From: Eubacteriales bacterium | GTDB lineage: Bacteria > Bacillota > Clostridia > Oscillospirales > CAG-272 | Direction of reading: 5' to 3' | Length of the DNA: 55,814 nucleotides | NCBI GenBank assembly: GCA_045656885.1 | Contig: JAZORZ010000063.1 | Coordinates: forward strand, 1 to 55,814 | Part shown: positions 1,118-54,958 of the stretch, one piece after another | How positions within the stretch are numbered: position 1 is the first letter of the stretch | How the letters are laid out: every line of letters begins with the position of its first letter | The notes under the pieces: model-generated | Seen by the model: the letters and a program-made list of their open reading frames with translations, nothing else | Database searches by the model: none | What the model was told of the DNA's origin: nothing | Translations under genes and position numbers: made by a program

Positions 1118-1312
1118 CAACTCTCTTAAAAATCAGGGTCTCGGTGGCCCCTGATTTTTTGCGGTAGCCAAAGCGAGCGGAGCGCTCGCGTCGTCCGTCT
1201 ATCCGAAAACTGACAAATCCATCTCGATATTTGTTTGGTGCAGGTTCTTGAAAAGGGGAGAGGTTTGGAGAGGGGGAAAACTTCTTGCAAGAAGTTTTCC
1301 CCCTCTCCAAAA
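1118..1312 (+). repeat. Dispersed structured repeat family A, copy 1
   Basis: AGGGTCTCGGTGGCCCCT stem, GCCAAAGCG-hairpin-CGCG, GTTCTTGAA and a terminal GGGGGAAAACTTCTT-GC-AAGAAGTTTTCCCCC hairpin. All are shared with five other copies. Confidence 0.85.
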
Positions 1313-1323
1313 GCACCCTACTC

Positions 1324-2499
1324 CTATCTTGCCAACACGGGCATGTTGGCGAGCATATTCTCCAAAAAGATGCCGTATCCCGTTGTCGGGTCGTTGATGA
1401 GGACGTGGGTGATGGCGCCGACGAGCTTGCCATCTTGAATGATGGGAGAGCCGCTCATTCCCTGCACGATGCCGCCGGTGAGGGCGAGCAGGTCGGGGTC
1501 GGTCACGGTGACGGTGAAGCACTTGGAGCCCTTGGCATCGCGCTTGATGTTGGAAATGCGAATGTCATATTTTTGGATCTCGTCGCCCGATGCGGTGCAA
1601 AGAATATAAGCATCGCCCTCGCGCAGATCGTCGCGCAGTCCCACGGGCATCGGCTCGTAAGAGGTTTCGGGAACCTCGGAGAACACGCCCCACACACCGC
1701 AGGTCGAGTTGCCGAGCAGTGCCCCCGAGCGACCGGGGTTAAAGTGCCCCTTGAGCTCTCCGGGCGCACCTGCCGCACCCTTGACCACCGAGGAGATGGT
1801 CACGTCGGATACCGCGCCCTTTCTCATCTGCACGAGTGCACCCGTGTCGGCATCGCAAATGCCGTGCCCAAGCCCTGCAAACGCGCCGCTATCGGGAAAT
1901 AGGAAGGTCACAGTGCCAATCCCCGCGCCGCTGTCACGCACCCAAATACCGGTCTTATATTGCCCCTCTGCAGCCGAGAGAACAGGAGTGAGCGTTGTTT
2001 CAAACTCCTTAGCACCTCTGCGGCAAAGGAGCTTGAGTGGCTTTCCGCCCGACGCCTCAATGCGCTCGGTCATATCCGCAGCACCGCAAAGCTTTTCCCC
2101 ATTGATTTGTAGAATGACGTCCTTTGGGTGCAGTCCCGCACGCGCGGCAGGATTAACGCTCCCCTTGCCCGTGTCAATATCGCAAAAGCCAACAACCATT
2201 ACGCCGTCTGTGTAAAATTTCACTCCAAAGGGCATGCCCCCGGGGTAGAGCATCAGGTCGCCGAGAGCATCGGCATCTGCCTCAAGAACTGCCGAGTAGG
2301 TGGCGGCTTCACGCAGCTCGGTCATATAGGGCAGAGAAGCAGACGCGGCGATGTCGGCATCAAATCCCGACGGGCAATGGCTCATAGCAAAAACAAACTC
2401 CTTTTTTGTTCTGCCTGCCGAGGGTATCAAAACTCCCAAAAAAGGGAGCGACAGCATCAGCAAAAGGCAGCACAAAAGCTTCCAAATTCTTCTTTTCAT
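1324..2499 (-). CDS. spoIVB: SpoIVB peptidase (PDZ + S55)
   Basis: PGGMPFGVKFYTDGVMVVG, GIWVRDSGAGIGTVTF, GLGHGICD, GGIVQGMSGSPIIQDGKLVGAITHV. Confidence 0.93.
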   Translation of the reverse strand: MKRRIWKLLCCLLLMLSLPFLGVLIPSAGRTKKEFVFAMSHCPSGFDADIAASASLPYMTELREAATYSAVLEADADALGDLMLYPGGMPFGVKFYTDGVMVVGFCDIDTGKGSVNPAARAGLHPKDVILQINGEKLCGAADMTERIEASGGKPLKLLCRRGAKEFETTLTPVLSAAEGQYKTGIWVRDSGAGIGTVTFLFPDSGAFAGLGHGICDADTGALVQMRKGAVSDVTISSVVKGAAGAPGELKGHFNPGRSGALLGNSTCGVWGVFSEVPETSYEPMPVGLRDDLREGDAYILCTASGDEIQKYDIRISNIKRDAKGSKCFTVTVTDPDLLALTGGIVQGMSGSPIIQDGKLVGAITHVLINDPTTGYGIFLENMLANMPVLAR

Positions 2500-2824
2500 A
2501 TCCTAAACCTTCCTATATATGGGCGCCCGAATGCGCCGTGATTTGTAAGAGGCAATGGGCGCAGGCCTGCAGTCGGCAATCGCTTTGCAAAACGCTCGCC
2601 GACGAATGATACCTTGTCCGGTTGCTGATACTAATGTGTGCCGCCACCGTGTGTTTCATAAGTAACAATGATAACCATTCGCCGCCTTCGACACGCCAAA
2701 ACATAGAAACGAAAAGAAGAAACAAAAGCTTTTTGTAAACGTGAGAATATTTTGCCCGACAAAGAAAAAAACATACTTAAGGGCGGTTATTTTTACAACT
2801 TTTGTTTGAAAAAAAGAAAAGGGC

Positions 2825-2870
2825 TTGACAAGCCCTGATTTTTGTGATATAATTTGAGAACCGTTCTCAA
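2825..2870 (+). promoter_or_regulatory. sigA promoter with adjacent Fur-type operator palindrome
   Basis: TTGACA(2825)-17-TATAAT(2848) with an extended TG, immediately followed by TTGAGAA-CCG-TTCTCAA (2854-2870). Confidence 0.75.
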
Positions 2871-2886
2871 TTTAAGGAGAAGACAA

Positions 2887-3312
2887 ATGAGAAAAAAGAG
2901 ATATAAGACAGCGGGCAGGGAAGCGCTCATCAGCTTTTTCAGACGCAATCCCGACCGCCAATTTACAGTAGAAGAGCTTTATACCGAGGTCAACGCCGAG
3001 GCACCCACGGGCAAGAGCAGTCTTTATCGCCATCTTGGCGAGCTTTGCAAAGTGGAGGTTTTGCGCAAGTTCCACGGCGGTGAAGGACGCGGAACCCTTT
3101 ATCAATACATCGGTGCCGAATGTGACTGCAAGGATCATTTTCACCAAAAGTGCACAGTTTGCGGTCGCGTCAGTCACCTTGATTGCTTTGCCAGCGCCGA
3201 GTTTGCAGAACATATGCTGCGCGAGCACGGCTTTTTGATCAACTGTGGCCGCTCCGTTCTTTATGGCGTTTGCGCTGCCTGCATGCGTAAAGGAGAGCCG
3301 AGCAATGCATGA
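2887..3312 (+). CDS. Fur-family metal-dependent transcriptional regulator
   Basis: N-terminal wHTH (FTVEELY...SSLYRHL), HFHQKCTVCG and C-terminal YGVCAAC. AAGGAG RBS before ATG 2887. Confidence 0.88.
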   Translation: MRKKRYKTAGREALISFFRRNPDRQFTVEELYTEVNAEAPTGKSSLYRHLGELCKVEVLRKFHGGEGRGTLYQYIGAECDCKDHFHQKCTVCGRVSHLDCFASAEFAEHMLREHGFLINCGRSVLYGVCAACMRKGEPSNA

Positions 3313-4198
3313 GTTCTTTCACATTTTAGGGCATAGCGCGCTCCACACGCTCGAGGACACCCTCAAGGTTGTTCCGTTCTTGTTTTTAACCTACCTCTTA
3401 ATGGAGTTTTTGGAGCACAAGGCAGGCGGCGCGCCGGAGCGTTGGTTGCGCACGTCGGGCAAGGTAGGGCCGCTGATTGGCGGTGCGCTCGGTGTGCTTC
3501 CGCAATGCGGATTTTCTGCCGCGGCAACGGGATTTTACACAGGACGAATGATCACCACGGGAACACTCATCGCGGTCTATCTTTCCACGTCCGACGAAAT
3601 GCTCCCCATTTTGATCTCAAGCGGTGCACCGATTCCTACTATATTAAAATTATTAGTAACAAAACTGACCATCGGTGTTGCCGCGGGCTTTGCCATTGAC
3701 GGCATCACGCGCCTTTGCCGACACGGCAAGAACGGCGAGCAGGAGCCGCAGATCGAGGAGCTTTGCGAACGCGAAAATTGCGCTTGCGGCGATCGCTTTG
3801 TGCTCTCGGCACTCAAGCACACCGCCTACATTACCGTTTTCCTTTTGCTATTCACCTTTGTTCTCAACATCGGCATTGAAGCCGTTGGCGAGGAGAACAT
3901 TCAAAGCTTGGTGCTGGGCCGCCCGATTATTGGCAGCTTTTTGGCGGCACTTGTAGGGCTCATTCCCAACTGTGCATCGTCGGTGGCACTTACCTCACTG
4001 TTTGCAGACGGTGTTCTCAGCAGTGGCGCGCTGCTTTCTGGCCTGATGGTGAATGCGGGCATTGGTCTTGCTATTCTCTTCCGCAATAACCGTCCCGTTA
4101 AGGATTCCTTCCGCGTGGTAGGGATTTTGTTCGGTATTTCCGTTGTGTGCGGAATTTTGATCGATCTGACAACGCTTGGCGCATGGATCGCAAAATGA
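3305..4198 (+). CDS. Putative metal (Mn/Zn-type) transporter, multi-TM permease
   Basis: Repeated LPQCGFS / IPNCASS and YLSTSDEMLP motifs with many TM segments. Overlaps the fur stop codon. Confidence 0.75.
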   Translation: MHEFFHILGHSALHTLEDTLKVVPFLFLTYLLMEFLEHKAGGAPERWLRTSGKVGPLIGGALGVLPQCGFSAAATGFYTGRMITTGTLIAVYLSTSDEMLPILISSGAPIPTILKLLVTKLTIGVAAGFAIDGITRLCRHGKNGEQEPQIEELCERENCACGDRFVLSALKHTAYITVFLLLFTFVLNIGIEAVGEENIQSLVLGRPIIGSFLAALVGLIPNCASSVALTSLFADGVLSSGALLSGLMVNAGIGLAILFRNNRPVKDSFRVVGILFGISVVCGILIDLTTLGAWIAK

Positions 4199-4202
4199 AT
4201 AA

Positions 4203-4238
4203 AAAAGAAGAGCGTCCCTAAAAGGGTCGCTCTTCTTT
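4203..4238. terminator. Bidirectional intrinsic terminator
   Basis: AAAGAAGAGCG...CGCTCTTCTTT hairpin between convergent genes. Confidence 0.7.
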
Positions 4239-4250
4239 ATGTTTGTTTGA

Positions 4251-5444
4251 TTAGTTTTTCTTGGTCAAATCCATAGGTTGATTGATAACAACCTCGATCT
4301 TGTTTGCGCGGTTGATGCGAGCATCGTGGTAAGTGCTGCTCATGTTTCTGGAGAGTGCTTCCATGTTTGCGGTTTCTTCGCCATAGAGAGCGGACTCACG
4401 CAGACGGTATTGTTCCTCGGTTTCGGGAATACCAAAGAGCTTGATGTGCAGCTTGGTAGCTCTCTTCTTGAGGTACTTGCTGAGCTTGTCAGCGTTGTGC
4501 AAATCATCGGGGTTAGCTGCTTGACGGGTGTCACGCATAAAGATAACCATATCGTCATATTCAGCAACCTTGAGCTTGTAGCGAATAACGCCCTTGTTCT
4601 GCTTGGTGAGCAGAGAATAAAGAACGATGCGGTAGTCGCCGTCTACCTTGATGGGGTTGGTAGGAGTTTCCAATACGAGCTGCTTGCCGTAGTAGGGGAA
4701 CTCTTTTCTGATGGCGATCTTAAGGGTGTGCAGACCGGGCTCAACGCGGAAGCAAGAGAACTCGCTATCAAGGTCAACTGCGCCAACCTCAACGCCATCG
4801 ATGTAAACAACTGCGTTATCAACAGAACCGGTGAAGCTTCTCAGCTCGGGAGTGCCTGCCTTGCTTGCATCAAAGTACTCATATTCGTCATCGTCTTCTG
4901 CTTCGCCATCCGCAACTTCCTCGTATTCAACAAGGGTCTCAAAAATGGAGCGAACGGAAACAACGATCTGGTTTTCAAGAACGCTGTCGATTTTTTCTCT
5001 CTTGAGGTTATCAAGCTTAATATCAACGTGGTCTGCCTTAGTGCTGTATCTTCTGTACTTTGCTTTGCAAACAAAGCTGAAGATGATGGCGAGAATGCCA
5101 AATACAGCAAATGCAATCAAGCCGGCAACAATCCAGAAAGCGGTTGCTTTGTGAATGAAGAATTCATAATCGGAGCCGATGTCAAAGAAGAAGAATTGAT
5201 CGCGGCCCAAATTGCCTGCAACAGCAGCACGAGCCCAACGAAGAATGCCGGTTACTACGCCTGCTGCAAGGGTGAGCCAAGCGGCCCAGATGAACAACAA
5301 ACGGAAGAATTCCCATTTTTTCCAAACACCAAGGCGTCTTTTCTTGGTGTAAACTGTTTTCAGATAATCATCCTTAAGCGCTTGCACCTTATCCTGCTCG
5401 TGCTTAGGGAGCTTTTGCGCTCTGGCATATGTATTTCTTGCCAT
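4251..5444 (-). CDS. Hypothetical membrane protein (2 TM plus a beta-rich C-terminal domain)
   Basis: 397-aa ORF with GAGG RBS and two hydrophobic helices. No family recognised. Confidence 0.8.
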   Translation of the reverse strand: MARNTYARAQKLPKHEQDKVQALKDDYLKTVYTKKRRLGVWKKWEFFRLLFIWAAWLTLAAGVVTGILRWARAAVAGNLGRDQFFFFDIGSDYEFFIHKATAFWIVAGLIAFAVFGILAIIFSFVCKAKYRRYSTKADHVDIKLDNLKREKIDSVLENQIVVSVRSIFETLVEYEEVADGEAEDDDEYEYFDASKAGTPELRSFTGSVDNAVVYIDGVEVGAVDLDSEFSCFRVEPGLHTLKIAIRKEFPYYGKQLVLETPTNPIKVDGDYRIVLYSLLTKQNKGVIRYKLKVAEYDDMVIFMRDTRQAANPDDLHNADKLSKYLKKRATKLHIKLFGIPETEEQYRLRESALYGEETANMEALSRNMSSTYHDARINRANKIEVVINQPMDLTKKN

Positions 5445-5651
5445 AACATTTATCCTCTTTTCTGCAATGATTTCGCGTTTTCATAATTGCGATAAACTTC
5501 CACACTAAATATTATATATATATTTTGCTGTTTTGTCAAGAGGGTTTTACAAAAGTGTACTCAAAAAAGCGAAAAAAGTTACAAAAAAGAAGAGGGAAAC
5601 AACAAAAAGGTCGACGCAAATGCCAAGGGCAGGCGCGTCGACCTTCGTTTT

Positions 5652-5870
5652 TTAATCCTCGATCTTGTCAAAGGTCTCGCGAGCGCGAAACAGCAGCGAG
5701 ATGCACCAAACACCGGCAAGACCTACCAGGGTGTAGATGATGCGGCTGAGCAGCGAGGATTGTCCACCGCAGATCCATGCCACGATGTCGAATTGAAACA
5801 GACCGATGCTGCCCCAGTTCAGAGCACCAACGATGGTTAAAATCAGAGAAATGCGATCCAATATCATCAT
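5652..5870 (-). CDS. DUF378 (YuzA-like) small membrane protein
   Basis: LILTIVGALNWGSIGLFQFDIVAWICGG...SRIIYTLVGLAG. Confidence 0.9.
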   Translation of the reverse strand: MMILDRISLILTIVGALNWGSIGLFQFDIVAWICGGQSSLLSRIIYTLVGLAGVWCISLLFRARETFDKIED

Positions 5871-5940
5871 TTTGTCTCCTTTGCATATTGCGGAATTCTG
5901 CCACGGGCTTACGTAGCGATTTTCAAATTCCGACTGCTTG

Positions 5941-5969
5941 TAGTATGTGCCGTTGTTGTTTCGTTATGC
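5941..5969 (-). promoter_or_regulatory. Forespore sigG-type promoter of the DUF378 gene
   Basis: GCATA-17 bp-CATACTA on the minus strand, matching the B. subtilis sigG consensus. Confidence 0.65.
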
Positions 5970-6016
5970 ACGCCGACGCCAAAAAAGAAATTTTATGCAA
6001 AAAAAACGCACTTTTA

Positions 6017-6045
6017 TTGACAAATGTTAGCAATTAAGATATAAT
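6017..6045 (+). promoter_or_regulatory. sigA promoter upstream of repeat copy 2 and recG
   Basis: TTGACA-17 bp-TATAAT. Confidence 0.75.
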
Positions 6046-6077
6046 TAAGCAAAGAGACAGAACAACTTTTCCGCTTT

Positions 6078-6249
6078 CAACTTTCTGAGCGGATAGGGTC
6101 TCGGCGGTCCCTAGCCGCTTGCGGCAGCCAAAGCGAGCGTTGCGCTCACGCCGACTGTCTGCTTGGGCCTAACAAATTTGTTTTGATATATTTTGTGCGA
6201 GAGTTCTTGAGGGGGCGTGGGGGGACTTCTTGCAAGAAGTTCCCCCACA
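6078..6249 (+). repeat. Dispersed structured repeat family A, copy 2 (in the recG leader)
   Basis: AGGGTCTCGGCGGTCCCT stem, GCCAAAGCG hairpin, CCGACTGTCT and GTGGGGGGACTTCTTGCAAGAAGTTCCCCCAC. Confidence 0.85.
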
Positions 6250-6273
6250 AAAAAACAAAAAGAGGTGCAATAA

Positions 6274-8415
6274 ATGGTTATAACGCGCAATTCGCCTGTT
6301 ACCGTGTTGGCGGGTGTAGGAAAAACGAGAGCGGAATACTATGCCAAGATTGGCATTGTTACCTTGGGTGACCTTTTGTTGCACTATCCGAGAGCATACG
6401 AGAACCGCGGAGACGTGGTGCTTTTGACAGATGCGAGAGAAAACGGAAAAAGCTCTCTGATCTTAACTGTTGCAAGTGACGCAAAGGTAGTAAGACTTCG
6501 TTCGCATAAATCTTTTTTGAAATTCCGCGCATTTGATGAAAGCGGCTCTTGCGAGATTACGTATTTCAATCAGGACTACCTCAAAACGCAATTCCGCGTA
6601 GGCACGGTCTTTCGGTTTTTTGGCAAGGTCGAGCGCGTAGGCAAGCGGTATACCATGTCCTCGCCCGTGGCAGAGCCATGGACACCGTCGGCAAATTTGC
6701 CGTCTTTGTGCGCGGTCTACCGCATGACCGAGGGGCTCACTCCCAAGCAGATCGCCAAGGATGTTGCGGCGGCAATCGAGCTGCTTGCGGCAAGCATCGA
6801 GGACCCGTTACCACCTGATGTAGTACAAAAACGCTCGCTTTGCACGCTTTCTTATGCACTCAAAAACATTCACAATCCCGAAACACCCGAGGCGTTGATG
6901 ATATCGCGCCGCCGTTTGGTATACGATGAATTTTTCTGCTTTTCGCTCGGCGCGGCAATGTCGCAACGCCGCGAGAAGTCGATGAACGCTCCCGCGTGCC
7001 CCGACGGGGATATTTCCCAATTACTTGCAACACTTCCGTATGAGCTCACGGGCGCGCAAAAACGCACGATCGGCGAGATCGCACGCGATATGGCACAGCA
7101 TACGCCAATGGGCAGAATCGTGGTCGGCGACGTTGGATGCGGCAAAACAATTTGTGCCGCCGCCGCAATGCTCATAGCGGTGCAAAACGGCAGGCAAGCG
7201 GCACTCATGGCACCCACCGAAATTTTGGCGCGCCAGCACTATCTTGACCTCGCCCCCGTTTTCGAGGGCATGGGTATTTCCTGTGAGCTTCTTATCGGCG
7301 CGACCACCGCAGGGGAGAAAAAACGTATTAAAGCCGCGCTTGCAAACGAGGACGAGAGCAAGCGATTGCAGGTTATTATCGGCACGCACGCCCTGCTTTC
7401 CGACGGTGTGGAGTTTGCCGCTCCCGGTCTTGTTGTGACCGACGAGCAGCACCGCTTTGGCGCACGTCAGCGTGCAAAGCTGGCAGAAAAGAACACCAAT
7501 GCCCACCTTTTGGTGATGAGCGCAACCCCCATTCCGCGCTCGCTCGCGCTCGTTCTTTATGGGGAGCTTGATATTTCCCGCATTGACGAAATGCCCGCGG
7601 GCAGACAAAGGGTTGACACCTTTGTCGTCGATGAAACCTACCGTCCGCGCCTCAATGCTTTCATTCAAAAGCAGGTCGACGAGGGGGGACAGGTCTACGT
7701 GGTTTGCCCGGCCGTCGAGGAACAGGAAAAAGAGCCCGAGGAGGTCACACTTTCTGACCTTGACGAGATCTTCCTCGCGCGCGAGGAAAAGCCGCCCCTC
7801 AAGGCGGCCGTCACCTTTGCCGAGGAGCTGCAAAAAGCACTTCCCGCGGTGCGTGTTGCGTTTTTACACGGGCGAATGAAGAGCCGCGAAAAAGATGCCG
7901 TAATGCAAGAATTTGCTGATGGCAACATCGACGTGCTGGTCTCCACCACCGTTATTGAGGTTGGCGTCAACGTGCCCAACGCCGCGTTGATGATCGTTGA
8001 AAACGCCGAGCGGTTTGGACTTTCGCAGCTGCATCAGCTGCGCGGCCGTGTCGGACGCGGCGTAAGAAAATCCCATTGCGTGCTTGTGATGGGTGGCGAG
8101 GGAGCGATATCCCGCACCTCGCGTGAACGCCTTGAGGTTATGCGTACCACCTACGACGGTTACCGCATCGCCGAGCAGGATCTGGCACAGCGCGGCCCCG
8201 GTGACTTTTTGGCCACCGCCGAGGGGGGAGTTGTTCGACAGAGCGGCGGACTTTCCTTCCGTCTTGCCGATGCCGGCGAGGATATTTCAGTGCTCACCGA
8301 GGCAGCTGCCGATGCAAGAGAAATTCTTTCCCATGACCCTGAGCTAACAGAAAACCCGCTCCTGCGCGAGCACATCAAGGGACTGTTCAGCATCGAGGCG
8401 GGGTTGATTAGTTAG
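6274..8415 (+). CDS. recG: ATP-dependent DNA helicase RecG
   Basis: GDVGCGKT, MAPTEILARQH, DEQHRFG, MSATPIPRSL, TTVIEVGVNVPNA, AERFGLSQLHQLRGRVGRG. Confidence 0.97.
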   Translation: MVITRNSPVTVLAGVGKTRAEYYAKIGIVTLGDLLLHYPRAYENRGDVVLLTDARENGKSSLILTVASDAKVVRLRSHKSFLKFRAFDESGSCEITYFNQDYLKTQFRVGTVFRFFGKVERVGKRYTMSSPVAEPWTPSANLPSLCAVYRMTEGLTPKQIAKDVAAAIELLAASIEDPLPPDVVQKRSLCTLSYALKNIHNPETPEALMISRRRLVYDEFFCFSLGAAMSQRREKSMNAPACPDGDISQLLATLPYELTGAQKRTIGEIARDMAQHTPMGRIVVGDVGCGKTICAAAAMLIAVQNGRQAALMAPTEILARQHYLDLAPVFEGMGISCELLIGATTAGEKKRIKAALANEDESKRLQVIIGTHALLSDGVEFAAPGLVVTDEQHRFGARQRAKLAEKNTNAHLLVMSATPIPRSLALVLYGELDISRIDEMPAGRQRVDTFVVDETYRPRLNAFIQKQVDEGGQVYVVCPAVEEQEKEPEEVTLSDLDEIFLAREEKPPLKAAVTFAEELQKALPAVRVAFLHGRMKSREKDAVMQEFADGNIDVLVSTTVIEVGVNVPNAALMIVENAERFGLSQLHQLRGRVGRGVRKSHCVLVMGGEGAISRTSRERLEVMRTTYDGYRIAEQDLAQRGPGDFLATAEGGVVRQSGGLSFRLADAGEDISVLTEAAADAREILSHDPELTENPLLREHIKGLFSIEAGLIS

Positions 8416-8480
8416 TTATCATAAAGCAAAAACGTTTAATGAATGCAAATTGTGCAAAGAGCGATGGAGAACCTCTTAAT

Positions 8481-8622
8481 GGCTCCCTTGTGTAAAGGGA
8501 GCTGTCAAATGCCGCAAGTGCATTTGACCAAGGGATTGTTTTTATGTAAAACACCCCTTTACAATCCCCCCGTCACCCTTCGCACGGCAACGGGTGCCAC
8601 CCCCCTTTACACAAGGGAGGCC
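8481..8622. repeat. Foldback repeat family C, copy 1
   Basis: GGCTCCCTTGTGTAAAGGGAGCTG...GGGATTGT-spacer-ACAATCCC...CCCTTTACACAAGGGAGGC. Second copy at 36817. Confidence 0.8.
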
Positions 8623-8635
8623 TAAGCAACCTTAG

Positions 8636-11788
<3,153 letters not shown>

Positions 11789-11795
11789 GGATTTA

Positions 11796-11968
11796 TGTGG
11801 GGGAACTTCTTTCGAGAAGTTCCCCCACACCCCCTCAAGAACTTGCTGACAAGGGGATTATCAAAACAAATCCGCAATGCACCAACAGACAGTCGGCGCA
11901 AGCCTACGCTTGCTTTTGCTCTCGCTAACTCGCAGGGGCCACCGAGACCCTGCTCGTTAAGAGAGTTC
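11796..11968 (-). repeat. Dispersed structured repeat family A, copy 3
   Basis: Reverse orientation. Positions 11922-11964 are identical (43 bp) to 54914-54956. Confidence 0.85.
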
Positions 11969-11988
11969 AAGGTATGAATTTTCGCACA

Positions 11989-12118
11989 GTAGGGCGGGGG
12001 CTTGCTCCCGCCGCTCCGCAAAAACAAACGCATACCGCAAACAAAAAAACGGGCGATTCGTGAATCGCCCCTACGGTGAAATTAAAAATCCATTGTAGGG
12101 GCGACCATTGGTCGCCCG
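11989..12118. repeat. Cluster of three GTAG-type REP-like palindromes (11989-12014, 12050-12074, 12095-12118)
   Basis: GTAG-GGCGGG...CCCGCC; CGGGCGATTC..GAATCGCCC-CTAC; GTAG-GGGCGACCATTGGTCGCCC. Confidence 0.8.
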
Positions 12119-12128
12119 TTTTTATTAT

Positions 12129-12719
12129 TCAATTATTTTTAATAAGGTCGCGCATACGCTTGGCAAAGTTCTTTTTGTTGTACGGCAAAATGAAATCTGT
12201 TGCTTCAGCCAACGCTTCTTCTTCGGCATAAAGCTCTTGCTTTTCCACGAGCAAAATAACTCTTTCACATTTGATGCTCTCGTCTACTCCCTTACATTGA
12301 AAAAAGAGTTCTTTTTCCGCTTCTACGTATACCTGGTAATCAAGCTCGTCAAGCGATTGCATGACATTCCATTTGCTGTTTTCAAAATCAAAATGAGGTG
12401 TGGCATCTGCCAAAAATAATGTTTTGTTGCAATAAAAGTATCCGTAATCACCGGGATCTTCGCTTTTTGGGAAAAATTGCAAAGGCAAGTTGTTTTTGAT
12501 GATCAGCTTATGTAGCCTGTATCCGTACGAGAGCGTGAAAAGCCACATATAGTTCGAGCGCCTTCCGTATATGCGTTTCATCTCTTTGCGAACAGCAGAA
12601 AGATGATATATAACAAAATCGATCGGCGTGTAAAGGAGCGCAAACAAAAGAAATGGAATGATAAAAAGGAAGGTGATGATCCCGACAATCACGGGGGAGT
12701 CTGTAATCTTTTTCTTCAT
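12129..12719 (-). CDS. Hypothetical protein with an N-terminal TM segment
   Basis: 196-aa ORF with AGGAGG RBS, AT-rich. Confidence 0.75.
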   Translation of the reverse strand: MKKKITDSPVIVGIITFLFIIPFLLFALLYTPIDFVIYHLSAVRKEMKRIYGRRSNYMWLFTLSYGYRLHKLIIKNNLPLQFFPKSEDPGDYGYFYCNKTLFLADATPHFDFENSKWNVMQSLDELDYQVYVEAEKELFFQCKGVDESIKCERVILLVEKQELYAEEEALAEATDFILPYNKKNFAKRMRDLIKNN

Positions 12720-12742
12720 AAAACCTCCTGTAAGAAAAATGC

Positions 12743-13306
12743 TTAAAAATCCGCCACGTGTTTACGAATATACTTTTTGAGATAGGTTTCAAGCGGCTCC
12801 ATTTCGTAGTATGCCTCGTCGTAATCGTCAAAGGGATATTCTTCTGCTTTCTCTTCAAATTCCTCGATTTTTTCTATGTCAAAAAAGGAAAGCTCGGTTA
12901 CGCTGATGTTGTTTTTCTTGATGAAATCATCAAACAGTTTTTTGTGAGCGGTTGCACCCACGATTTCCATATATTCGCTAACAAAGGGGGCGGCAATACG
13001 ACTTGAATTTACCAAAAACTGACACAAGCCACCATTGTTCACTTCCATTTCTAACCAATTTAAGGCATAAAACACCTTTTGAGAAGTATTTAGCGCGTTA
13101 AAGCCATCGGTGAGTTCTTCAAAACTATCCACCTTGTTTTCTGTTCTTACATTGACTGCCTCGAACAATTCTTCATCGTCAAGCGCGGCGAGTTCGTCGG
13201 TTGTCATAACAGGGTAGCGTATCTCTCTCTCCCTTATCGCTTCAAGCTCTTTTGCGAGATTTTTTCTCAAGGCAAAAAACGCCTTTATTGTACCAAAAAG
13301 TCCCAT
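12743..13306 (-). CDS. DUF4375 / DMP19-family protein
   Basis: LEMEVNNGGLCQFLVNSS signature and a very acidic C-terminus. Confidence 0.8.
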   Translation of the reverse strand: MGLFGTIKAFFALRKNLAKELEAIREREIRYPVMTTDELAALDDEELFEAVNVRTENKVDSFEELTDGFNALNTSQKVFYALNWLEMEVNNGGLCQFLVNSSRIAAPFVSEYMEIVGATAHKKLFDDFIKKNNISVTELSFFDIEKIEEFEEKAEEYPFDDYDEAYYEMEPLETYLKKYIRKHVADF

Positions 13307-13432
13307 AATCTTTCCCCTTTGCAGTGAATGAGTGATGAATTTATTGTATCACACGTGCAGATGTTTGTCAACGGATGCCGTTAACTTTCTTAAAAGTAGA
13401 TAACCATTTTTGAAAAACTCATTTGCGCATCC

Positions 13433-13605
13433 ACATTCTTAGCTCGTAGGGTTGGTGGTCCCTACGAGCTAGCGATAGCAAAGCGCGTCACAAGGACGCG
13501 CGCCGACTGTCTATTCGTAAACTAACAAACTGATTTTGATCATTTTTGTACGCAAGTTCTTGAAAGGGGTGTGGGGGAAACTTCTCTCAAGAAGTTTCCC
13601 CCACA
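13433..13605 (+). repeat. Dispersed structured repeat family A, copy 4
   Basis: AGCTCGTAGGG-TTGGTGGT-CCCTACGAGCT, GCAAAGCGCG hairpin, CCGACTGTCT and the terminal GTGGGGGAAACTTCT..AGAAGTTTCCCCCAC hairpin. Confidence 0.85.
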
Positions 13606-13617
13606 AAAAACGTGTCC

Positions 13618-14805: not shown

Positions 14806-15112
14806 TCCTTTCCGCGCGCGGGCGCATATTTCGCTATTTTCATTATACCTTACTTTGCATTTTCTGTCAAGGCGTTTGGGCTATTTTTGAAGGAAAGATA
14901 ACAGAACGGTCACAAATGCATCTCCCATTCAGTTTTTTGGCAAAACGCGGCGCAGCGGTTGACATTTTTTGTCGTGTGTGCTATACTGTTCTTGAAAGGA
15001 TCAAAGGAATTTTACCAAAAAATAAAAATATTTTTATTTTCGAGTGATATATCCTTACAAAATGCCGTCTATTATGGTAGGATCCACAAAACCACAAAAA
15101 GGAGAAAGGAAA

Positions 15113-21288: not shown

Positions 21289-21366
<78 letters not shown>

Positions 21367-43574: not shown

Positions 43575-43600
43575 GTTTGGGCAAAGCAGAATGCTTTGCC

Positions 43601-43671
43601 TCAATAGGTATATTCTTGCAATATGGGCAAGTGTTTCTACAAACCACCGATAATGGTTGACTACCGGATGA
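43601..43671 (+). ncRNA. Purine riboswitch aptamer, guanine-type (C at the specificity position)
   Basis: P1 GGTA/TACC; P2 CTTGC-AATATGG-GCAAG; J2/3 GTTTCTAC; P3 AACCA-CCGATAA-TGGTT; J3/1 GACT. Confidence 0.9.
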
Positions 43672-43698
43672 ATTTTCCGTAGTCAACCATATTTTTTT
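43653..43698 (+). terminator. Riboswitch expression-platform terminator overlapping the aptamer
   Basis: ATGGTTGACTAC (43653-43664) pairs with GTAGTCAACCAT (43679-43690), followed by a T7 run. Confidence 0.85.
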
Positions 43699-43718: not shown

Positions 43719-44318
43719 ATGAATCTTTATCTTGAAATTTTCGGTTATATCGGCACGGCTTTTGTTATTGTTTCCATGATGATGACCTCGGTTATCAAAT
43801 TACGCATTTTCAATATGTGCGGCGCCCTCATCAGTCTTATTTACGCCGTTTGCGTTAACACCTGGCCCGTGGCGGTACTCAATGCCTGCTTGCTTTGCAT
43901 CAATCTTGTGCAAACGCTGCGGCAACTGCGCCACAAGTCGGATTTTACCGATCTGAAACTTGATGCCGATGATCTCACCGTACAACACTTTTTGTCGGTG
44001 AACGCAGAGGACGTTCAAAAATATTTTCCAAATTATCGCCTGCAAGCACATCAGGAAACCGAGATTCATATGATATACGTAGAGTGCGAGGCGGTCGGCA
44101 TTTTGGTGGGCACACGTGCAGTTGACGTGTATCGTATCGAGATGGATTACGTTGTGCCTAAATATCGTGATATTGCGGTTGGCAAATTTTTGTTTCCGCA
44201 ATTAAAAGAGCAGGGCGTCAATCTGCTCACAGCCGCAAGCGTCTGCCGTGAGCACGATCAATACTTGCAAAAGCTTGGCTTTAGAGAAGACAGCGGAATT
44301 CTTTTGAGAGATCTTTAA
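43719..44318 (+). CDS. YgjV-like membrane protein with a C-terminal GNAT-like domain
   Basis: IFGYIGTAFVIVSMMMTSVIKLRIFN at the N-terminus; MDYVVPKYRDIAVGKFL...YLQKLGF at the C-terminus. Confidence 0.75.
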   Translation: MNLYLEIFGYIGTAFVIVSMMMTSVIKLRIFNMCGALISLIYAVCVNTWPVAVLNACLLCINLVQTLRQLRHKSDFTDLKLDADDLTVQHFLSVNAEDVQKYFPNYRLQAHQETEIHMIYVECEAVGILVGTRAVDVYRIEMDYVVPKYRDIAVGKFLFPQLKEQGVNLLTAASVCREHDQYLQKLGFREDSGILLRDL

Positions 44319-50507: not shown

Positions 50508-50786
50508 ATGTTATACGTGGTCAATCTTATCAAAAATATTGCGCTGGCACTTCTGAGCGTGTTGGATATTGCCATGTTTGGCAGAGCCATTCTTTCCTGG
50601 ATCGATCCGATGAGTGACGGACCCTTGGCGTCCTTTCTGTATGCCATCACCGAGCCAATCATCTTGCCCTTCCGCAAGCTGTTTGAAAAAAAGAATTGGT
50701 TTGTGGGGGTTCCCATCGATATGGCGTTTTTCTTTGCCATGATCTCAATCATCATTCTTCAAACGGTTTTGGAGGCACTTTTGTAA
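50508..50786 (+). CDS. ylmG: YggT/YlmG family membrane protein
   Basis: RAILSWI...LYAITEPIILPFR...PID. Confidence 0.9.
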   Translation: MLYVVNLIKNIALALLSVLDIAMFGRAILSWIDPMSDGPLASFLYAITEPIILPFRKLFEKKNWFVGVPIDMAFFFAMISIIILQTVLEALL

Positions 50787-51601
50787 TGGCGACGGAGAAC
50801 TCACGTGACCTGTTTGAGGCGCGCCTTGAGGACGCCGTTCGCAAATGCACCTCGGGGAGCGTGGCACAGGTTCCGTTTTTGACGATGCGCGAGCGTCGCC
50901 GTGCCGAACGCATTTTGAACGCTCGCGGAATGAGAGATGCCTATTGGTTTTGGGGCGGTCACAAAACCGCTGAGCGGACCTGTCTCTTTCTGTTGCCCGA
51001 TTATCTTGTTGCCATTCTACCCGAAGATGCCGCCGAGCGCGAAGCAGCTCTCCCTGATTACCTTGCCGAGGAGCTGACCGAGGCGGTGGTGTCTCTTTCC
51101 GTCAAGGGCAGCGGCTTTCGCAACCTTTCACATCGTGATTACCTTGGTGCTGTTTTGGGGCTTGGCATTGAGCGTGATGCCATTGGCGACATCGCCGTGC
51201 AGGATGAGCACAGTGCCATTCTATTTTGTCCGCGCACCCTTGCCGGCTTTTTGATAGGGGAACTCACCAAGGTGGGCTCCGATACCGTTCGTTGCCGTGA
51301 GTGCACTATTGACGAAACCTTTACCGACGGAAAGAAGTATCGCCCCATCAGCGATACCGTCGCATCTCCGCGACTCGATTGCGTGGTCGCCGCACTTTGC
51401 AACCTCTCGCGCGAAGCGGCACAAAACGCCGTACGCGGCGGACTTGTTGAGGTCGATTTCGAGCCCGAGGAACGTGTTGATACCGTCCTCGAGCCACCCA
51501 TTACCGTCTCTGTGCGCGGCTACGGCCGCTTTATTCTCCGCTCCTTCGACGGAGAGACCAGAAAGGGAAGGTTGCGCCTAAAAGCAGATCAGTTAGTTTA
51601 G
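50786..51601 (+). CDS. ylmH: YlmH/Sll1252 family S4-like RNA-binding protein
   Basis: LSHRDYLGAVLGLGIERDAIGDI, TVASPRLDCVVA, SVRGYGRF. Confidence 0.9.
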   Translation: MATENSRDLFEARLEDAVRKCTSGSVAQVPFLTMRERRRAERILNARGMRDAYWFWGGHKTAERTCLFLLPDYLVAILPEDAAEREAALPDYLAEELTEAVVSLSVKGSGFRNLSHRDYLGAVLGLGIERDAIGDIAVQDEHSAILFCPRTLAGFLIGELTKVGSDTVRCRECTIDETFTDGKKYRPISDTVASPRLDCVVAALCNLSREAAQNAVRGGLVEVDFEPEERVDTVLEPPITVSVRGYGRFILRSFDGETRKGRLRLKADQLV

Positions 51602-51610: not shown

Positions 51611-51787
51611 TGTGGGGGAAACTTCTTGCAAGAAGTTTCCCCCACACCCCTTTCAAGAACTCTCTAACAAAGGGTCTACAAAAACAAATCGTTCGTGTTC
51701 TAACAGACAGTCGACGCGAGGAGAAACCTCGCTTTGGCTACCGCAATTTTGTAGGGGCCACCGAGACCCTACAAAATAAGAAAGTTG
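51611..51787 (-). repeat. Dispersed structured repeat family A, copy 5
   Basis: Reverse orientation: TGTGGGGGAAACTTCTTGCAAGAAGTTTCCCCCACA...AGACAGTCG...ATTTTGTAGGGGCCACCGAGACCCTACAAAAT. Confidence 0.85.
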
Positions 51788-51831
51788 TTTAGGTACGCAA
51801 AGGGATAGCAAATGTGCTATCCCTTTGGTTT

Positions 51832-52365
51832 TTATTGGCATTTGTTTCTTTTGCGACTTCTTTTCCATTGATTGATTTTATCAAATACACCCAAACAGTG
51901 AAGTGCATAAAGCATCAATGAAGCAAGCGCCAAACCGCACACAAATGACATAATATTATCGCAAATATTCGCAGGAATCAAGCCGTTCAATCGTCCTTTG
52001 TGCTCATTTCCAAAAAGCAGATAACTAACAAGCATCAAGCAAATAGAGGAAGCCAACATTGTTCGCAATTTTTCTTTGCGTCTGTTAGTTTCTTCTGTCG
52101 TGTATTCTGCTACCTTTTTCAGGGTTTCTTTGGTTTCATTATTCATCTTCTCGCTTTTCCTTTCCCCATCTATTATTTCGCGGATGTCCACATCATAAAA
52201 ATCTGCAAGCTCTATGAGCATATCAATATCGGGCATATTACTACCGGTCTCCCATCGCGATATTGTTCTTGAGGATACGTAAAAATGCTCTGCAAACTGT
52301 TCTTGTGTCAATCCTTTTTCTTTGCGTAGGCATTTGAGAAATTTGCCTATTTTTTGTTGGTTCAT
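51832..52365 (-). CDS. XRE-family HTH regulator with C-terminal TM helices
   Basis: IGKFLKCLRKEKGLTQEQFAE...SRWETGSNMPD. AT-rich. Confidence 0.88.
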   Translation of the reverse strand: MNQQKIGKFLKCLRKEKGLTQEQFAEHFYVSSRTISRWETGSNMPDIDMLIELADFYDVDIREIIDGERKSEKMNNETKETLKKVAEYTTEETNRRKEKLRTMLASSICLMLVSYLLFGNEHKGRLNGLIPANICDNIMSFVCGLALASLMLYALHCLGVFDKINQWKRSRKRNKCQ

Positions 52366-52495
52366 TTGTCACCCCTCCTTGTGTCTAAATAATATCACAC
52401 CAAAATGCAAAACTCCACGACACAAAGCGAGAAATGCCGTGATTGATGGGTGACATCTTGTGTCCTGTCCGTGTATGATAAACTCTTTTTTCTTC

Positions 52496-52562
52496 CTTTT
52501 GTTCAAAAGTTTTTGAAAGGGGTGCAGGGGGAAACTTTTTCCTTAAAAAGTTTCCCCCTGCA
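52496..52562 (+). repeat. Repeat family A, partial copy (terminal hairpin only)
   Basis: TTGAAAGGGG-TGCAGGGGGAAACTTTTT-CCTT-AAAAAGTTTCCCCCTGCA. Confidence 0.75.
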
Positions 52563-52574: not shown

Positions 52575-53930
52575 TTACTCCTCATCATCCGCGTCGTCGG
52601 CAAAAACTTGTGCGAGCGTTTGGTGAGCGTGTGCTTCTTCTTTGGGAACGATGTCGCCTGCCTTGGTCAAGGCGATCTTGGTCAGCGCGGGGCCTACAAG
52701 CTCATAAACAAGGACACCAAAGAGAACGATGTTTCTTACGATGTAACCGTCGGCGAGGAGTGCGCCTGCAATGGCGGACATACCGAGAGCGACACCCGCT
52801 TGCGGGAAGAGGGTAATGCCGAGGTACTTCACAATGGATTTGCTGCAACCGGAGAGCTTTGCGCTTGCCGCTGCGCCGATATATTTACCGAGCGCACGGG
52901 AGAGCACGTAAACCACACCGATGATAACAACGGTCACCGAGCCGAAAATGCTCAAATCAAGCTCTGCACCGCTGAATACGAAGAAGAGAATGAGCACGGG
53001 CATGGTCCATTTATCGGTTTTTTCCATTAGCTCGTCTGCGCTGTCACAAATGTTGCAGAAGAGTGTACCCATCATCATACAAACAAGCAGGTTCGAGAAC
53101 GCGATCTCAATGCCAAAGGGCAGGAAGAACTCGAGCTGCGCGAGAGCAACTGTCAAAAGCACAAAGGTCAGGGTGATACAAAGACGCTTACTGTTGGATT
53201 GGAAGTGATCCTCTACAACCGAGAGGATCCAACCGGTCAGTGCGCCAAGCACCAACGAAAGGGTTACTTCAACCAAGGGGTTGATCAAAAGGGAAACGAT
53301 ACCAACGGCAGCCGCACCGCTTTCAAGCGCTTGAGCTATACCCATCGAAACGGCAAAGCAAACAAGACCAACCGCGTCGTCGAGTGCAACAACGGGGAGC
53401 AAGAGACTCGTCAAGGGACCCTTTGCCTTGTACTGCTTAACAACCATCATGGTTGCCGCAGGAGCGGTAGCGGTTGCGATTGCACCAAGGGTGATGGCAA
53501 CCGAAAGGGGAAGAACCTCCGGGCCAAGAATAAAATGCAAGCCGATGAGTGCGCCGTCAACCACAAGCATTGTAACAATGGCTTGCGCGCAACCAACAAT
53601 GGCTGCTTGGCGTCCCGTCTTTTTGAGCGAGGAGAGCTTAAACTCCGAGCCAATGGCAAACGCAATAAAGCCGAGGGCAACGTCCTGAACGATGGCGCCT
53701 GTGCCCTTGAGCGTTTCCTCCGAGGAGAACACGCCCGTAATACCGAGCGCACCAAGGCAGTAGGGGCCAATGAGTACGCCTGCAATCAAATATCCCGTGA
53801 CGGCAGGGAGCTTTAAGGGCTTAACGATACGCGAGAGCAACAAACCCATAAAGAGGGCAAGTGCCAAGCCGAACAAAACCTGCGAGCTTCCTCCCTCGGA
53901 GAAAGCACCCGAAAATGCTTCGTAAAACAT
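52575..53930 (-). CDS. Cation:proton antiporter (Na+/H+ exchanger family)
   Basis: LPAVTGYLIAGVLIGP, ALGFIAFAIGSEF, ATATAPAAT, VVALDDA, FFVFSGAEL, PQAGVALG. Confidence 0.9.
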   Translation of the reverse strand: MFYEAFSGAFSEGGSSQVLFGLALALFMGLLLSRIVKPLKLPAVTGYLIAGVLIGPYCLGALGITGVFSSEETLKGTGAIVQDVALGFIAFAIGSEFKLSSLKKTGRQAAIVGCAQAIVTMLVVDGALIGLHFILGPEVLPLSVAITLGAIATATAPAATMMVVKQYKAKGPLTSLLLPVVALDDAVGLVCFAVSMGIAQALESGAAAVGIVSLLINPLVEVTLSLVLGALTGWILSVVEDHFQSNSKRLCITLTFVLLTVALAQLEFFLPFGIEIAFSNLLVCMMMGTLFCNICDSADELMEKTDKWTMPVLILFFVFSGAELDLSIFGSVTVVIIGVVYVLSRALGKYIGAAASAKLSGCSKSIVKYLGITLFPQAGVALGMSAIAGALLADGYIVRNIVLFGVLVYELVGPALTKIALTKAGDIVPKEEAHAHQTLAQVFADDADDEE

Positions 53931-54081
53931 AATTAAAAATACCTTCTTTTATGCAAAAATATAAAGTCACAAAACATCGACTATTATACTCCCTTTGTGT
54001 GCTAATGTCAACCCCTAAAAGCATTTTTTTGTTTTTTTGTCAGCTTTGTCAAACAGAGGGGCAAAAACAGTCGCTTTTTGC

Positions 54082-54110
54082 TTGACATCGCACAGAAAAT
54101 ATGCTATACT
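54082..54110 (+). promoter_or_regulatory. sigA promoter
   Basis: TTGACA-17-TATACT with an extended TG. Confidence 0.75.
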
Positions 54111-54143
54111 TGATACAGAAAACCAAGTCGGAGGAACAGTACA

Positions 54144-54767
54144 ATGCTCAAAGTGGAACGCACATCCGTTATGAATATCGATAACGCCATTCGTGGCGCA
54201 CGCAACCCCATGAACAGCTGGGCAAAATCGGATAGCACATACGATGAGAACGGCAAGTTTATCATCGGCGCCGCTGACCTCGATTTTGGTCATCGCTTGG
54301 CGGTTGCAGGCAGCGACCACCGCAAATTTTTGCGTCAGGTGTTCGTTTCGGTTGACATCACCGCTCCTCTGTATTGGTGGAAGGAATTTGACACCTACAA
54401 GGTAGGCACGGTTGCCAACTCTACCTCGACCATGCACAAAATTCACGCCAAGGAATTCACCCGCGACGACTTTTCGCACGATCGCCTCGACGAGAGCGGG
54501 CTGAACATGCTCGATGCTATTATCGATTACCTCGAGTGTGAACGCCAAAAGTTCCTCGAGAACAAAGAGGACCGCCAAAGCTGGCACAACATGATTCAAA
54601 TGCTGCCGTCCTCTTACAACCAAATGCGTACCGTGACAATGAACTACGAAAACCTCATCAACATCTATTACGCGCGCCGCACTCACAAGCTCGCCGAGTG
54701 GCACACCCTTTGCGAGTGGATCGAATCTCTCCCTTGCGCCGCTGAATGGATTTGTGTGAGAGAGTGA
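54144..54767 (+). CDS. Conserved hypothetical protein, divergent ThyX-like fold
   Basis: DHRKFLRQVFVSVDITAPLYWWKEFDTYK...NSTSTMH and LPSSYNQMRTVTMNYENL...RRTHKLAEW. The layout parallels ThyX but the RHR motif is absent. Confidence 0.65.
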   Translation: MLKVERTSVMNIDNAIRGARNPMNSWAKSDSTYDENGKFIIGAADLDFGHRLAVAGSDHRKFLRQVFVSVDITAPLYWWKEFDTYKVGTVANSTSTMHKIHAKEFTRDDFSHDRLDESGLNMLDAIIDYLECERQKFLENKEDRQSWHNMIQMLPSSYNQMRTVTMNYENLINIYYARRTHKLAEWHTLCEWIESLPCAAEWICVRE

Positions 54768-54779
54768 TTTTAGAGATGA

Positions 54780-54958
54780 TGTGGGGGAACCTTTTTCGCG
54801 AAAAAGGGTTCCCCCGCACCCCCTCCAAAAAGCACTCGCACAAAAAGAAAAAGGATTCACTCCAAAGATACGGATAGACAGTAGGAGCGCACCACAAGGA
54901 TGCGCTTTTGCTGTCGCTAACTCGCAGGGGCCACCGAGACCCTGCTCGTTAAGAGATT
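54780..54958 (-). repeat. Dispersed structured repeat family A, copy 6
   Basis: Reverse orientation. 43-bp identity with copy 3. Confidence 0.85.

Follow-up and report, generated by a model that had tools for sequence, protein, structure and literature searches.

Introduction

The repeat described in this paper most resembles the repetitive extragenic palindromic (REP) sequences and bacterial interspersed mosaic elements (BIMEs) of Escherichia coli and other Proteobacteria, which are G+C-rich palindromes found in tens to hundreds of intergenic copies, often as inverted pairs with set linkers. REP termini are reported often to abut or supply stop codons, and one large REP class to have no dedicated transposase (PMC3733652); many E. 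coli REPs are placed 1-20 nt from the end of an open reading frame (ORF), with translation affected only when the distance is below 16 nt (PMC12306157); and REP325 is described as a partial terminator as well as a stabiliser of the upstream mRNA, REPs being reported to stabilise upstream mRNA and to attenuate transcription (bioRxiv 10.64898/2026.03.23.713779). Dispersed palindromic repeats are well studied in Proteobacteria and hardly in gut Clostridia, and our literature search found no paper joining REP-type repeats with Oscillospiraceae or Firmicutes. Here we describe an element of 175-250 nt in the genome of an Eubacteriales bacterium (Bacillota; Clostridia; Oscillospirales; CAG-272; assembly GCA_045656885.1), starting from its copies in positions 1 to 55,814 of contig JAZORZ010000063.1. 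This whole stretch of 55,814 nt is called the window below. The element is a real, abundant, modular intergenic repeat of a gut Clostridia lineage, belongs to no named family, and is REP/BIME-like rather than an RNA gene.

A preliminary description of the window had reported a single dispersed, non-coding element of about 180 bp with conserved structure, in six full copies and one partial copy. Its dispersal, its non-coding nature and its kept structure were confirmed, and all seven copies were recovered by alignment and by a covariance model (R1) built from the six full ones. The element is, however, a mosaic of separable modules rather than one 180-bp unit, and most of its units stand at conserved orthologous sites. 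The modules are a strong hairpin (B), a linker (L), a part with stem 1 and hairpin 3 (A) and an optional nested unit (N).

Like REP/BIME sequences, the element lies close to the stop codon of an upstream gene (4-25 nt past it in 36 of 77 units), as reported for REPs (PMC3733652, PMC12306157); its neighbouring units are mostly head-to-head, and inverted B'-B doublets occur in other genera. Unlike them, it has no sequence likeness to REPs, its host belongs to a spore-forming Clostridia lineage, and its unit, several times the size of theirs, is built of four modules in set order and has a constant core loop. In addition, B and stem 1 carry neither a GTAG nor a CGTC tag, no REP-associated tyrosine transposase (RAYT) was found, and A turns over at fixed B sites. 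The REPIN-RAYT system is comparable in its inverted hairpin doublets, in retention at orthologous sites and in the vertical inheritance and long persistence reported for REPINs. It differs in its single-copy, repeat-flanked RAYT gene, which was found neither in this genome nor in close relatives.

Other repeats of similar size are ERIC, BOX, RUP, Correia and bcr1, which are 100-200 nt long, have strong predicted folds and are co-transcribed with neighbouring genes. BOX is modular, and ERIC occurs in long and short forms with internal inserts. Copies in these families have terminal inverted repeats (TIRs) together with short target duplications, or the family is defined by its sequence in other taxa; the present element differs from them in having neither a TIR nor a target duplication.

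Position after stop codons and distribution

The host genome (G000) is assembled in 79 contigs with 2,020,921 bases, the window being contig C63, and has a G+C content of about 50%, a completeness of 98.55% and a stated contamination of 3.63%. The presence of the SpoIVB, SpoVE/FtsW and YlmH families indicates a spore-former. In this genome, nhmmer gave 138 matches, 67 of them spanning at least 100 model positions. After overlapping matches and reverse-strand echoes of the palindromic hairpin were merged, about 77 hairpin-bearing units were counted, of which 56 start within the first 35 model positions and 21 consist of the 3' part only. By separate criteria, we selected 45 uninterrupted short copies, to which all comparisons over short copies refer, and 12 copies with an insert of about 80 nt in the stem-1 loop.

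The strongest regularity of the element, absent from the preliminary description, is its position just past stop codons. The stop of a gene reading into B is followed after 4-25 nt by the outer end of the B hairpin in 36 of the 77 units; the random intergenic expectation is 0.063, giving a binomial tail of 5e-23 with crude gene calls. These 36 stops are of all three kinds (TAA 24, TAG 7, TGA 5) and share no upstream bases, and a purine-rich GGA(CGCGG)TTTT is often present just after the stop codon. Five of the six genes reading into B in the window were confirmed by Pfam (spoIVB-, lacZ-, spoVE- and ylmH-like genes and a Na/H exchanger), and one ORF had no match. A comparison of lacZ sequences showed that the stop codon belongs to the lacZ-like gene itself and that the element starts right past it. 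Even at about 70% identity to the host a species can retain the hairpin after this stop; two other species lack it. Because B stands just past the stop of an incoming gene, the strand that is surely transcribed in about half of the units, as 3' untranslated region (UTR) of that gene, is, judging from this layout, probably the reverse complement of the strand on which the element was originally described. We call these the gene-sense strand and the described strand, respectively.

Matches were found in all of 18 sampled genomes of the same genus and in none of 12 genomes from other families of the order. Among 120 other genomes of the family, 39 had B-like matches, corresponding to 33 of 97 genera. 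What the other genera have in common with G000 is the 3' hairpin unit, which is often present twice in inverted arrangement (B'-B doublets). Outside the genus, too, the hairpin stands 0-31 nt past the end of an open frame of 80 codons or more in 16 of 20 loci, each taken from a different genome of the family.

As had been suspected, the element matches no Rfam family: a scan of the whole window at the gathering thresholds of Rfam 15 returned two tRNAs and a purine riboswitch only. Permissive scans (E up to 10) of the copies c1 and c4 and of a long-form copy gave noise of the miRNA-type hairpin kind far below gathering scores, and in addition the ylbH leader with 14.4 bits against a cut-off of 50. 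A phage origin was considered and rejected, as a viral collection gave one match to the 18-nt stem-1 core alone and none to the B-core.

Modular organisation

A full-length alignment of the six full copies of the window has 262 columns and a mean column identity of 65%. RNAalifold predicted four hairpin regions for these copies; among the 46 pairs in them, 17 vary on both sides. Alignment and fold agree with the four modules in fixed order that had been recognised before. The element reaches about 13 nt further on its 5' side (a weak TTTGC..AAA) and about 10-20 nt further on its 3' side (AAA-CGCG-TCC, followed by the stop codon of the neighbour) than originally delimited. The core of B (B-core) consists of GTGCGAGAGTTCTTGAAAGGGG, a G+C-rich hairpin of 15-18 bp with GTTCTTGAAAGGGG ahead of it, and a short tail. 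The linker L is A/T-rich and about 35 nt long. A spans CAACTCTCTTA to CGACTGTCT; within it, stem 1, whose constant core is AGGGTCTCGGTGGCCCCT, is followed by GCGNNAGCAAAAGC and hairpin 3. The outer arms of stem 1 had been described as different between copies and yet complementary; the arms do vary, and several of them are not fully complementary, keeping G-A/A-G mismatches beside the core. N, nested in the stem-1 loop of the 12 long copies, has the layout GGGTCTCGCTGCGGCTCGG, a variable hairpin and GCCGCTTCGCTAC. GGTCTCG occurs three times in the long form.

The modules are separable. Units of L and B only, or of B only, are common, and A was never seen without L and B. The locus C21:15188 shows A as a clean indel: G000, G004 and G014 have it, G003 and G041 do not, and the break runs exactly from CAAC to GTCTGTCC, with both flanks still alignable. 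At C46:11885, only B is retained in G003 and G006. The family offers a natural experiment in which a stop-proximal hairpin is retained over long evolutionary time and the neighbouring module is replaced.

N was also found nested in the loops of other, unrelated hairpins, many of them GTAG/CTAC-tagged, in metagenome-assembled genomes of other gut Clostridia labelled Candidatus Limivicinus, Eubacteriales, Clostridia, Oscillospiraceae and Acutalibacteraceae. It behaves as a separate small element that enters hairpin loops. The possibility of a longer autonomous parent whose stem-1 loop contained an ORF was rejected: the end motifs of N are always 50-70 nt apart in G000 (12 of 12) and nearly always 47-61 nt apart in other genomes (114 loci), where the few larger gaps are second copies or a 132-nt insert. 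The element contains no conserved ORF, several copies being stopped in all six frames. A small ORF translationally coupled to the upstream gene (purine-rich GGA/GGAGG past the stop, GTG at the hairpin foot) was rejected as well, since the frames opened at GTG, TTG or ATG by the hairpin foot have 5-88 codons without conservation, 19 of 71 ending at 5-7 codons.

Covariation and probable exchange of hairpins between copies

In an alignment of 41 copies, 91.4% of the cells were paired; shuffles gave 80.9% and slid partners 44-60%. Changes on both sides were seen in 24 of the 46 pairs; as this alignment was fitted to the model, the pairing counts lean towards structure. The distribution of pair types is uneven. 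Helix 3 had 260 Watson-Crick, two G-U and one A-C cells, and helix 5 had 551, five and seven, respectively; helices 1, 3 and 5 are almost without G-U pairs.

We compared 21 orthologous pairs at 10 loci with random paralogues. The stem-1 arms of orthologues were no more alike (0.47-0.54) than those of paralogues (0.49-0.50), and the same was seen for hairpin 3 (0.66 and 0.65). The unpaired linker, in contrast, keeps an orthology signal (0.74 vs 0.59). At the c3 locus, the copies of G000 and G003 agree completely in the 3' two thirds and have different stem-1 sequences, the stem 1 of G000 being that found in its own copy c6. In the orthologue of c4 in G003, both the stem-1 and the hairpin-3 sequences differ. 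Moreover, the short copies combine variants of stem 1, of hairpin 3 and of the B hairpin independently of one another. Diverged species share the sequences of the stem-1 core and of the motifs around hairpin 3, and their stem arms vary.

The swaps of whole hairpins at orthologous sites and the near-absence of G-U pairs disfavour compensatory drift at the RNA level. The covariation thus appears to fit an exchange of whole hairpins between loci better than stepwise compensatory substitution. The preliminary description had taken compensatory change between paralogous copies as a sign of selection on a single-stranded fold, a conclusion that is not safe with helices 3 and 5 almost purely Watson-Crick and hairpins swapped whole. 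More generally, paired 'compensatory' differences between paralogous repeats can arise by hairpin swapping and are not, alone, evidence of a functional RNA.

Folding and strand-specific features

B is by far the most stable of the hairpins, with a mean folding energy of -23.5 kcal/mol; stem 1 has -15.6 and hairpin 3 has -9.6. Compared with shuffles, single copies fold far better (z = -5.5), and the opposite strand gave z = -4.7. On the gene-sense strand, hairpin 3 is a G+C-rich stem of 7-8 bp, free to vary in sequence, followed by UUUUGCU or UUUGGCU. In the short copies, we counted T residues over the 8 nt that follow B, stem 1 and hairpin 3, each read in both directions. After hairpin 3 in the gene-sense direction, at least five T were present in 27 of 45 copies and at least four in 43; for the other five combinations of hairpin and direction, at least five T were present in 0, 0, 0, 0 and 4 of 45, the last being B on the described strand. 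Stem 1 has no U tract in either direction in these copies. B was rejected as an intrinsic terminator, having no U tract in either direction and never being flagged by a terminator scan in c1-c4. Hairpin 3 on the gene-sense strand is terminator-like in its G+C-rich stem and U-rich tail; the element as a whole is unlike one in that this tail is short, the far stronger B has no U tract, and the hairpin is part of a dispersed repeat with extra conserved modules.

Arrangement of units and accessory genes

Among 20 pairs of neighbouring units within 4 kb in G000, 13 are head-to-head, four tandem and three tail-to-tail. Five of the head-to-head pairs are 5-167 bp apart, and the others enclose one or two accessory genes: three encode XRE-family helix-turn-helix (XRE-HTH) proteins, two DMP19-like proteins and one a BspA-type leucine-rich repeat (LRR) protein, and several are of no recognised kind. 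The XRE-HTH proteins include a paralogous family of about 390-400 aa, two members of which are 27% identical. The enclosed genes differ between species. The centre between c3 and c4 is absent in G003, where the elements are about 117 bp apart; the HTH gene between c5 and the partial copy p7 is missing in G004; and in G014 the whole stretch of c5, gene and p7 (978 bp) is replaced by 92 bp.

The element is accompanied by other hairpin repeats. GTAG/CTAC-tagged, REP-like hairpins gave about 195 matches of at least five sequence types in G000, a genome without a RAYT match. In the window, one of them (1078-1104, + strand) lies 13 nt upstream of the 5' end of c1, two (11989-12013 and 12095-12118) adjoin c3, and the one at 994-1055 is larger, its loop containing two additional nested hairpins. 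A GGGATAGC..GCTATCCC hairpin at 51800-51825 adjoins c5. In 22 of the 45 short copies, a listed hairpin repeat is located at most 70 nt from the 5' end.

Mobility and search for a mobilising enzyme

Mobility of the element between relatives, as originally proposed, holds in part: the full copy c2 and module A were gained or lost between species, and most units remain at conserved orthologous sites. The proposed mobilisation by an HUH nuclease, in the manner of palindrome-associated transposable elements (PATEs) or REPINs, did not find support. As had been noted, the window contains no cognate enzyme. The whole of G000 gave no match to PF01797 (Y1/HUH), PF07282 (TnpB zinc ribbon) or PF01548 (IS110), all of which matched in control genomes; PF01385 was not searched, and IscB not separately. 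Nothing exceeded the PF01797 cut-off in the five closest relatives (G003, G004, G006, G014 and G041). A Y1 gene above the cut-off is present in 18 of 78 genomes of the genus, none of these five among them. Two Y1 genes tested with NCBIfam were IS200 transposases (160 bits) and not RAYTs (30-39 bits against a cut-off of 80), and the element was not found in any of ten fetched Y1 loci of the genus. Draft assemblies often lose repeats and insertion sequence (IS) genes, and therefore these results do not prove that an enzyme is absent. G000 also has no multi-copy protein family, no protein having more than one close paralogue.

In the short copies the longest inverted match between the ends averages 5.1 nt (4.9 in shuffles), so that no TIR is present, and direct repeats between the flanks follow the shuffled distribution, so that there is no target duplication; in both respects the element is unlike miniature inverted-repeat transposable elements. 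No fixed tetra- or pentanucleotide precedes the 36 stop-proximal units. PATEs and other IS200-IS605 derivatives are similar in having hairpins near both ends and neither TIR nor target duplication; they differ in their conserved 5' target oligonucleotide, in that the two end hairpins of the present element are not alike, and in the TnpA/TnpB enzymes, which had no match in G000. Likewise, the matches to PF01548 and PF07282 that an IS110 bridge-RNA or a TnpB/IscB guide-RNA element would bring are missing from G000, with the restriction on IscB given above.

The only reverse transcriptase of G000 is a retron-type protein of 308 aa (PADLOC RT_Ec107-like, E = 5e-127; C36:8691-9263, locus L072:1255-2181, - strand), encoded between a radical-SAM/UPF0004 gene and a choloylglycine (bile-salt) hydrolase gene. 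A link to the element was rejected, no copy being adjacent. A DNA read set (X1) searched over window positions 1-20000 came from a mixed community of related organisms; its joints connect repeats with mostly short sides, and it gave no usable filled or empty sites.

Interpretation

Taken together, the data lead us to interpret the element, with a probability of roughly 0.55, as a REP/BIME-like modular 3'-end module, part stabiliser and part terminator, whose hairpins turn over at the DNA level without a resident transposase. B, on the gene-sense strand and 0-30 nt past the stop, would be a barrier to 3' exonucleases and possibly a brake on terminating ribosomes, and about 110 nt downstream hairpin 3, with its UUUUGCU tail, may cause modest intrinsic termination. 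The element would spread and turn over in DNA: B sites would be old and positionally conserved, A would be gained, lost and overwritten at them, and whole hairpins would be exchanged by ectopic gene conversion or template switching at hairpins. Such an exchange would explain the perfectly paired, G-U-free 'compensated' stems. No transposase would be resident today, as far as the assembly shows. If so, the family could show how bacteria build and renew the 3' ends of genes without a transposase.

Several observations weigh against this interpretation. The gene calls were a crude greedy set of longest ORFs of at least 90 aa, and 41 of the 77 units are not beside a called stop. Thirteen of the 45 short copies lie between co-directional genes, some with almost no space for a new promoter. 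The U tail of hairpin 3 is short, and a simple terminator scan flagged two of the four window copies examined (c1-c4). At C21:15188 a canonical bidirectional terminator comes after the element whether A is present or absent, so that A is not needed for termination there. Stem 1 with its highly conserved loop would lie downstream of the proposed hairpin-3 terminator and is therefore not explained by the model; the conservation of the stem-1 core and of the hairpin-3 motifs means that some constraint acts there that falls outside it. The G-A/A-G mismatches of stem 1, as well as the 35 G-U against 16 A-C cells of helix 2, favour folding of the described strand. It is the layout of the element that suggests transcription of its strands, a terminating role of hairpin 3 and a protective one of B; gene conversion would be a reading of its mosaic patterns, and the origin of the stop-proximal position lies outside the model.

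Another explanation would be a structured RNA made from the described strand, which could be a small RNA, an antisense RNA over the stop region of a convergent gene or a cis-acting leader. The stem-1 loop and core (CAGGGUCUCGGUGGCCCCUG), GCGNNAGCAA and the B region are conserved across diverged species on variable arms; helix 2 covaries (GGGAG/CUCCC, GGUAG/CUACC, GACAG/CUGUC), with its G-U pairs on that strand; the tandem G-A mismatches of stem 1 are purine-purine there; single copies fold well; and c2 is certainly transcribed in that orientation, as the leader of recG. Nevertheless, no promoter-like site is present at the 5' end of any window copy, hairpins with a U tail in that direction are confined to B in 4 of 45 copies, and the opposite strand folds about equally well. 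The almost G-U-free helices 1, 3 and 5 and the whole-hairpin swaps, the 21 units without the A half, the lack of an Rfam match, and a copy number (about 77 per genome) and link to gene ends that would be unusual in an RNA gene make us regard this explanation as quite improbable. The strand symmetry of the helices would agree with a site recognised in the DNA by a host protein, such as a nucleoid, topoisomerase or recombination factor, with the stem-1 core as its motif and head-to-head pairs as landing sites where accessory genes come and go. The constant 18-nt core on variable arms across the genus, the threefold GGTCTCG of the long form and the accessory genes between head-to-head pairs, which differ between species, are consistent with such a site; it explains neither the link to stop codons nor the strand-specific U tail and has no candidate protein, and we consider it very unlikely indeed.

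A non-autonomous transposon of the PATE/REPIN type, moving as single-stranded DNA and served in trans by an HUH (Y1) enzyme that recognises subterminal hairpins, would account for the hairpins near both ends without TIR or target duplication, for the between-species differences in c2, A and whole head-to-head blocks, for the predominance of head-to-head pairs and the REPIN-like inverted doublets of other genera, for small units nested in hairpin loops and for the abundance of GTAG-tagged hairpins beside the element. It is difficult to reconcile with the PF01797 results in an almost complete genome (98.5%) and its close relatives, with the ordinary, unflanked IS200 transposases of the genus, with the three kinds of preceding stop codon and the lack of a shared oligonucleotide, and with the unlike end hairpins and the conserved orthologous sites of most units; we hold it to be possible, if unlikely. 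Finally, a transposase-free cassette system may be imagined, in which stop-proximal B hairpins serve as anchors, A and single hairpins are overwritten by hairpin-templated copying, and head-to-head pairs are landing pads at which XRE-HTH, DMP19-like and BspA-LRR genes would be gained and lost. Template switching or short-tract conversion at stalled forks would then keep terminator-type stems perfectly paired and yet hypervariable. This proposal is, in our opinion, rather doubtful.

Copies in the window and other features

The features of the window and related loci are listed in Table 1. R1 recovered the six full copies with 151-185 bits and the partial copy p7 with 58.5 bits, and its matches in G000 had E values down to 5e-48, well beyond chance. 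The partial copy, previously placed at 52496-52562, is present, and its homologous part is longer (52465-52558 by nhmmer); G004 carries a full long-form copy at this position. Orthologues of c3 were found as copies in G003, G014 and G009, as a diverged full copy in G050 and as the hairpin only in G044.

Table 1. Coordinates of repeat copies, adjoining genes and related features (window positions unless a contig is named)
Feature	Position	Strand	Description
c1	1118-1312	+	A 1118-1203, L 1204-1235, B-core 1236-1302, hairpin extended to ~1312; R1 match 1118-1305
c1 neighbour	1324-2499	-	spoIVB ORF; c1 hairpin end 11-18 nt from its stop
c2	6078-6249	+	A 6078-6163, L 6164-6194, B-core 6195-6249; within recG 5' leader; R1 match 6078-6249
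c3	11796-11968	-	B-core 11796-11850, L 11851-11883, A 11884-11967; R1 match 11796-11968
c3 neighbour	8645-11788	+	lacZ-like ORF; hairpin begins 7 nt past stop
c3/c4 centre	12129-13306	-	two ORFs: 196 aa, no Pfam match; 187 aa, DMP19-like
c4	13431-13605	+	A 13433-13515, L 13516-13547, B-core 13548-13605; R1 match 13431-13605
c4 neighbour	13618-14805	-	spoVE/ftsW-family ORF; hairpin end 12 nt from stop
c5	51611-51787	-	B-core 51611-51668, L 51669-51701, A 51702-51787; R1 match 51611-51787
c5 neighbour	50696-51601	+	ylmH-like ORF; hairpin begins 9 nt past stop
c5/p7 centre	51832-52365	-	XRE-family HTH gene, 177 aa
p7 (partial)	52408-52562	+	L and B-core clear at 52465-52558; 52408-52464 decayed A at most; R1 match 52408-52562
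p7 neighbour	52575-53930	-	Na/H-exchanger ORF; hairpin end 13 nt from stop
c6	54780-54960	-	B-core 54780-54841, L 54842-54872, A 54873-54958; R1 match 54780-54960
c6 neighbour	54144-54767	+	ORF without Pfam match; hairpin begins 12 nt past stop
GTAG/CTAC-tagged REP-like hairpins	994-1055, 1078-1104, 11989-12013, 12051-12070, 12095-12118, 37046-37093, 55755-55778
Accessory genes in head-to-head pairs, other contigs of G000	C1:72445-73653, C71:63602-64771, C61:18517-19524, C13:8441-10741
Copies with nested N, G000	C61:19723-19974, C62:31340-31590, C2:26056-26305, C76:2478-2728, C14:16213-16460		seven more in G000; loci L143-L254 in other genomes

The copy c2 lies downstream of a promoter-like site (6017-6045, +), a perfect TTGACA-17-TATAAT, and upstream of the start of recG at 6274. 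It is oriented so that hairpin 3 is without a U tail. In the comparison with five relatives, a full copy at this site was specific to G000; in four relatives the recG leader contains other kinds of repeats in its place. Perfect 12-of-12 TTGACA-17-TATAAT sites also occur in the window at 2825-2853 (+) and 5539-5511 (-).

Several copies in G000 are located less than 400 bases from contig ends, as would be expected of repeats, which break assemblies; they could also mislead gene callers near stop codons. At contig ends of G000 we also observed ORFs that are 82-95% identical to ORFs on other contigs (e.g. C12:45923-46981 and C25:2-844; C14:2-1285 and C61:19940-22192; C30:24281-24727 and C62:31595-32665), which probably represent a strain mixture or split alleles in the assembly. 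The purine riboswitch aptamer of the window (48 bits; 43586-43683, +) lies upstream of an ORF at 43719-44318, and the two tRNA genes are adjacent at 21292-21366 and 21388-21473 (-).

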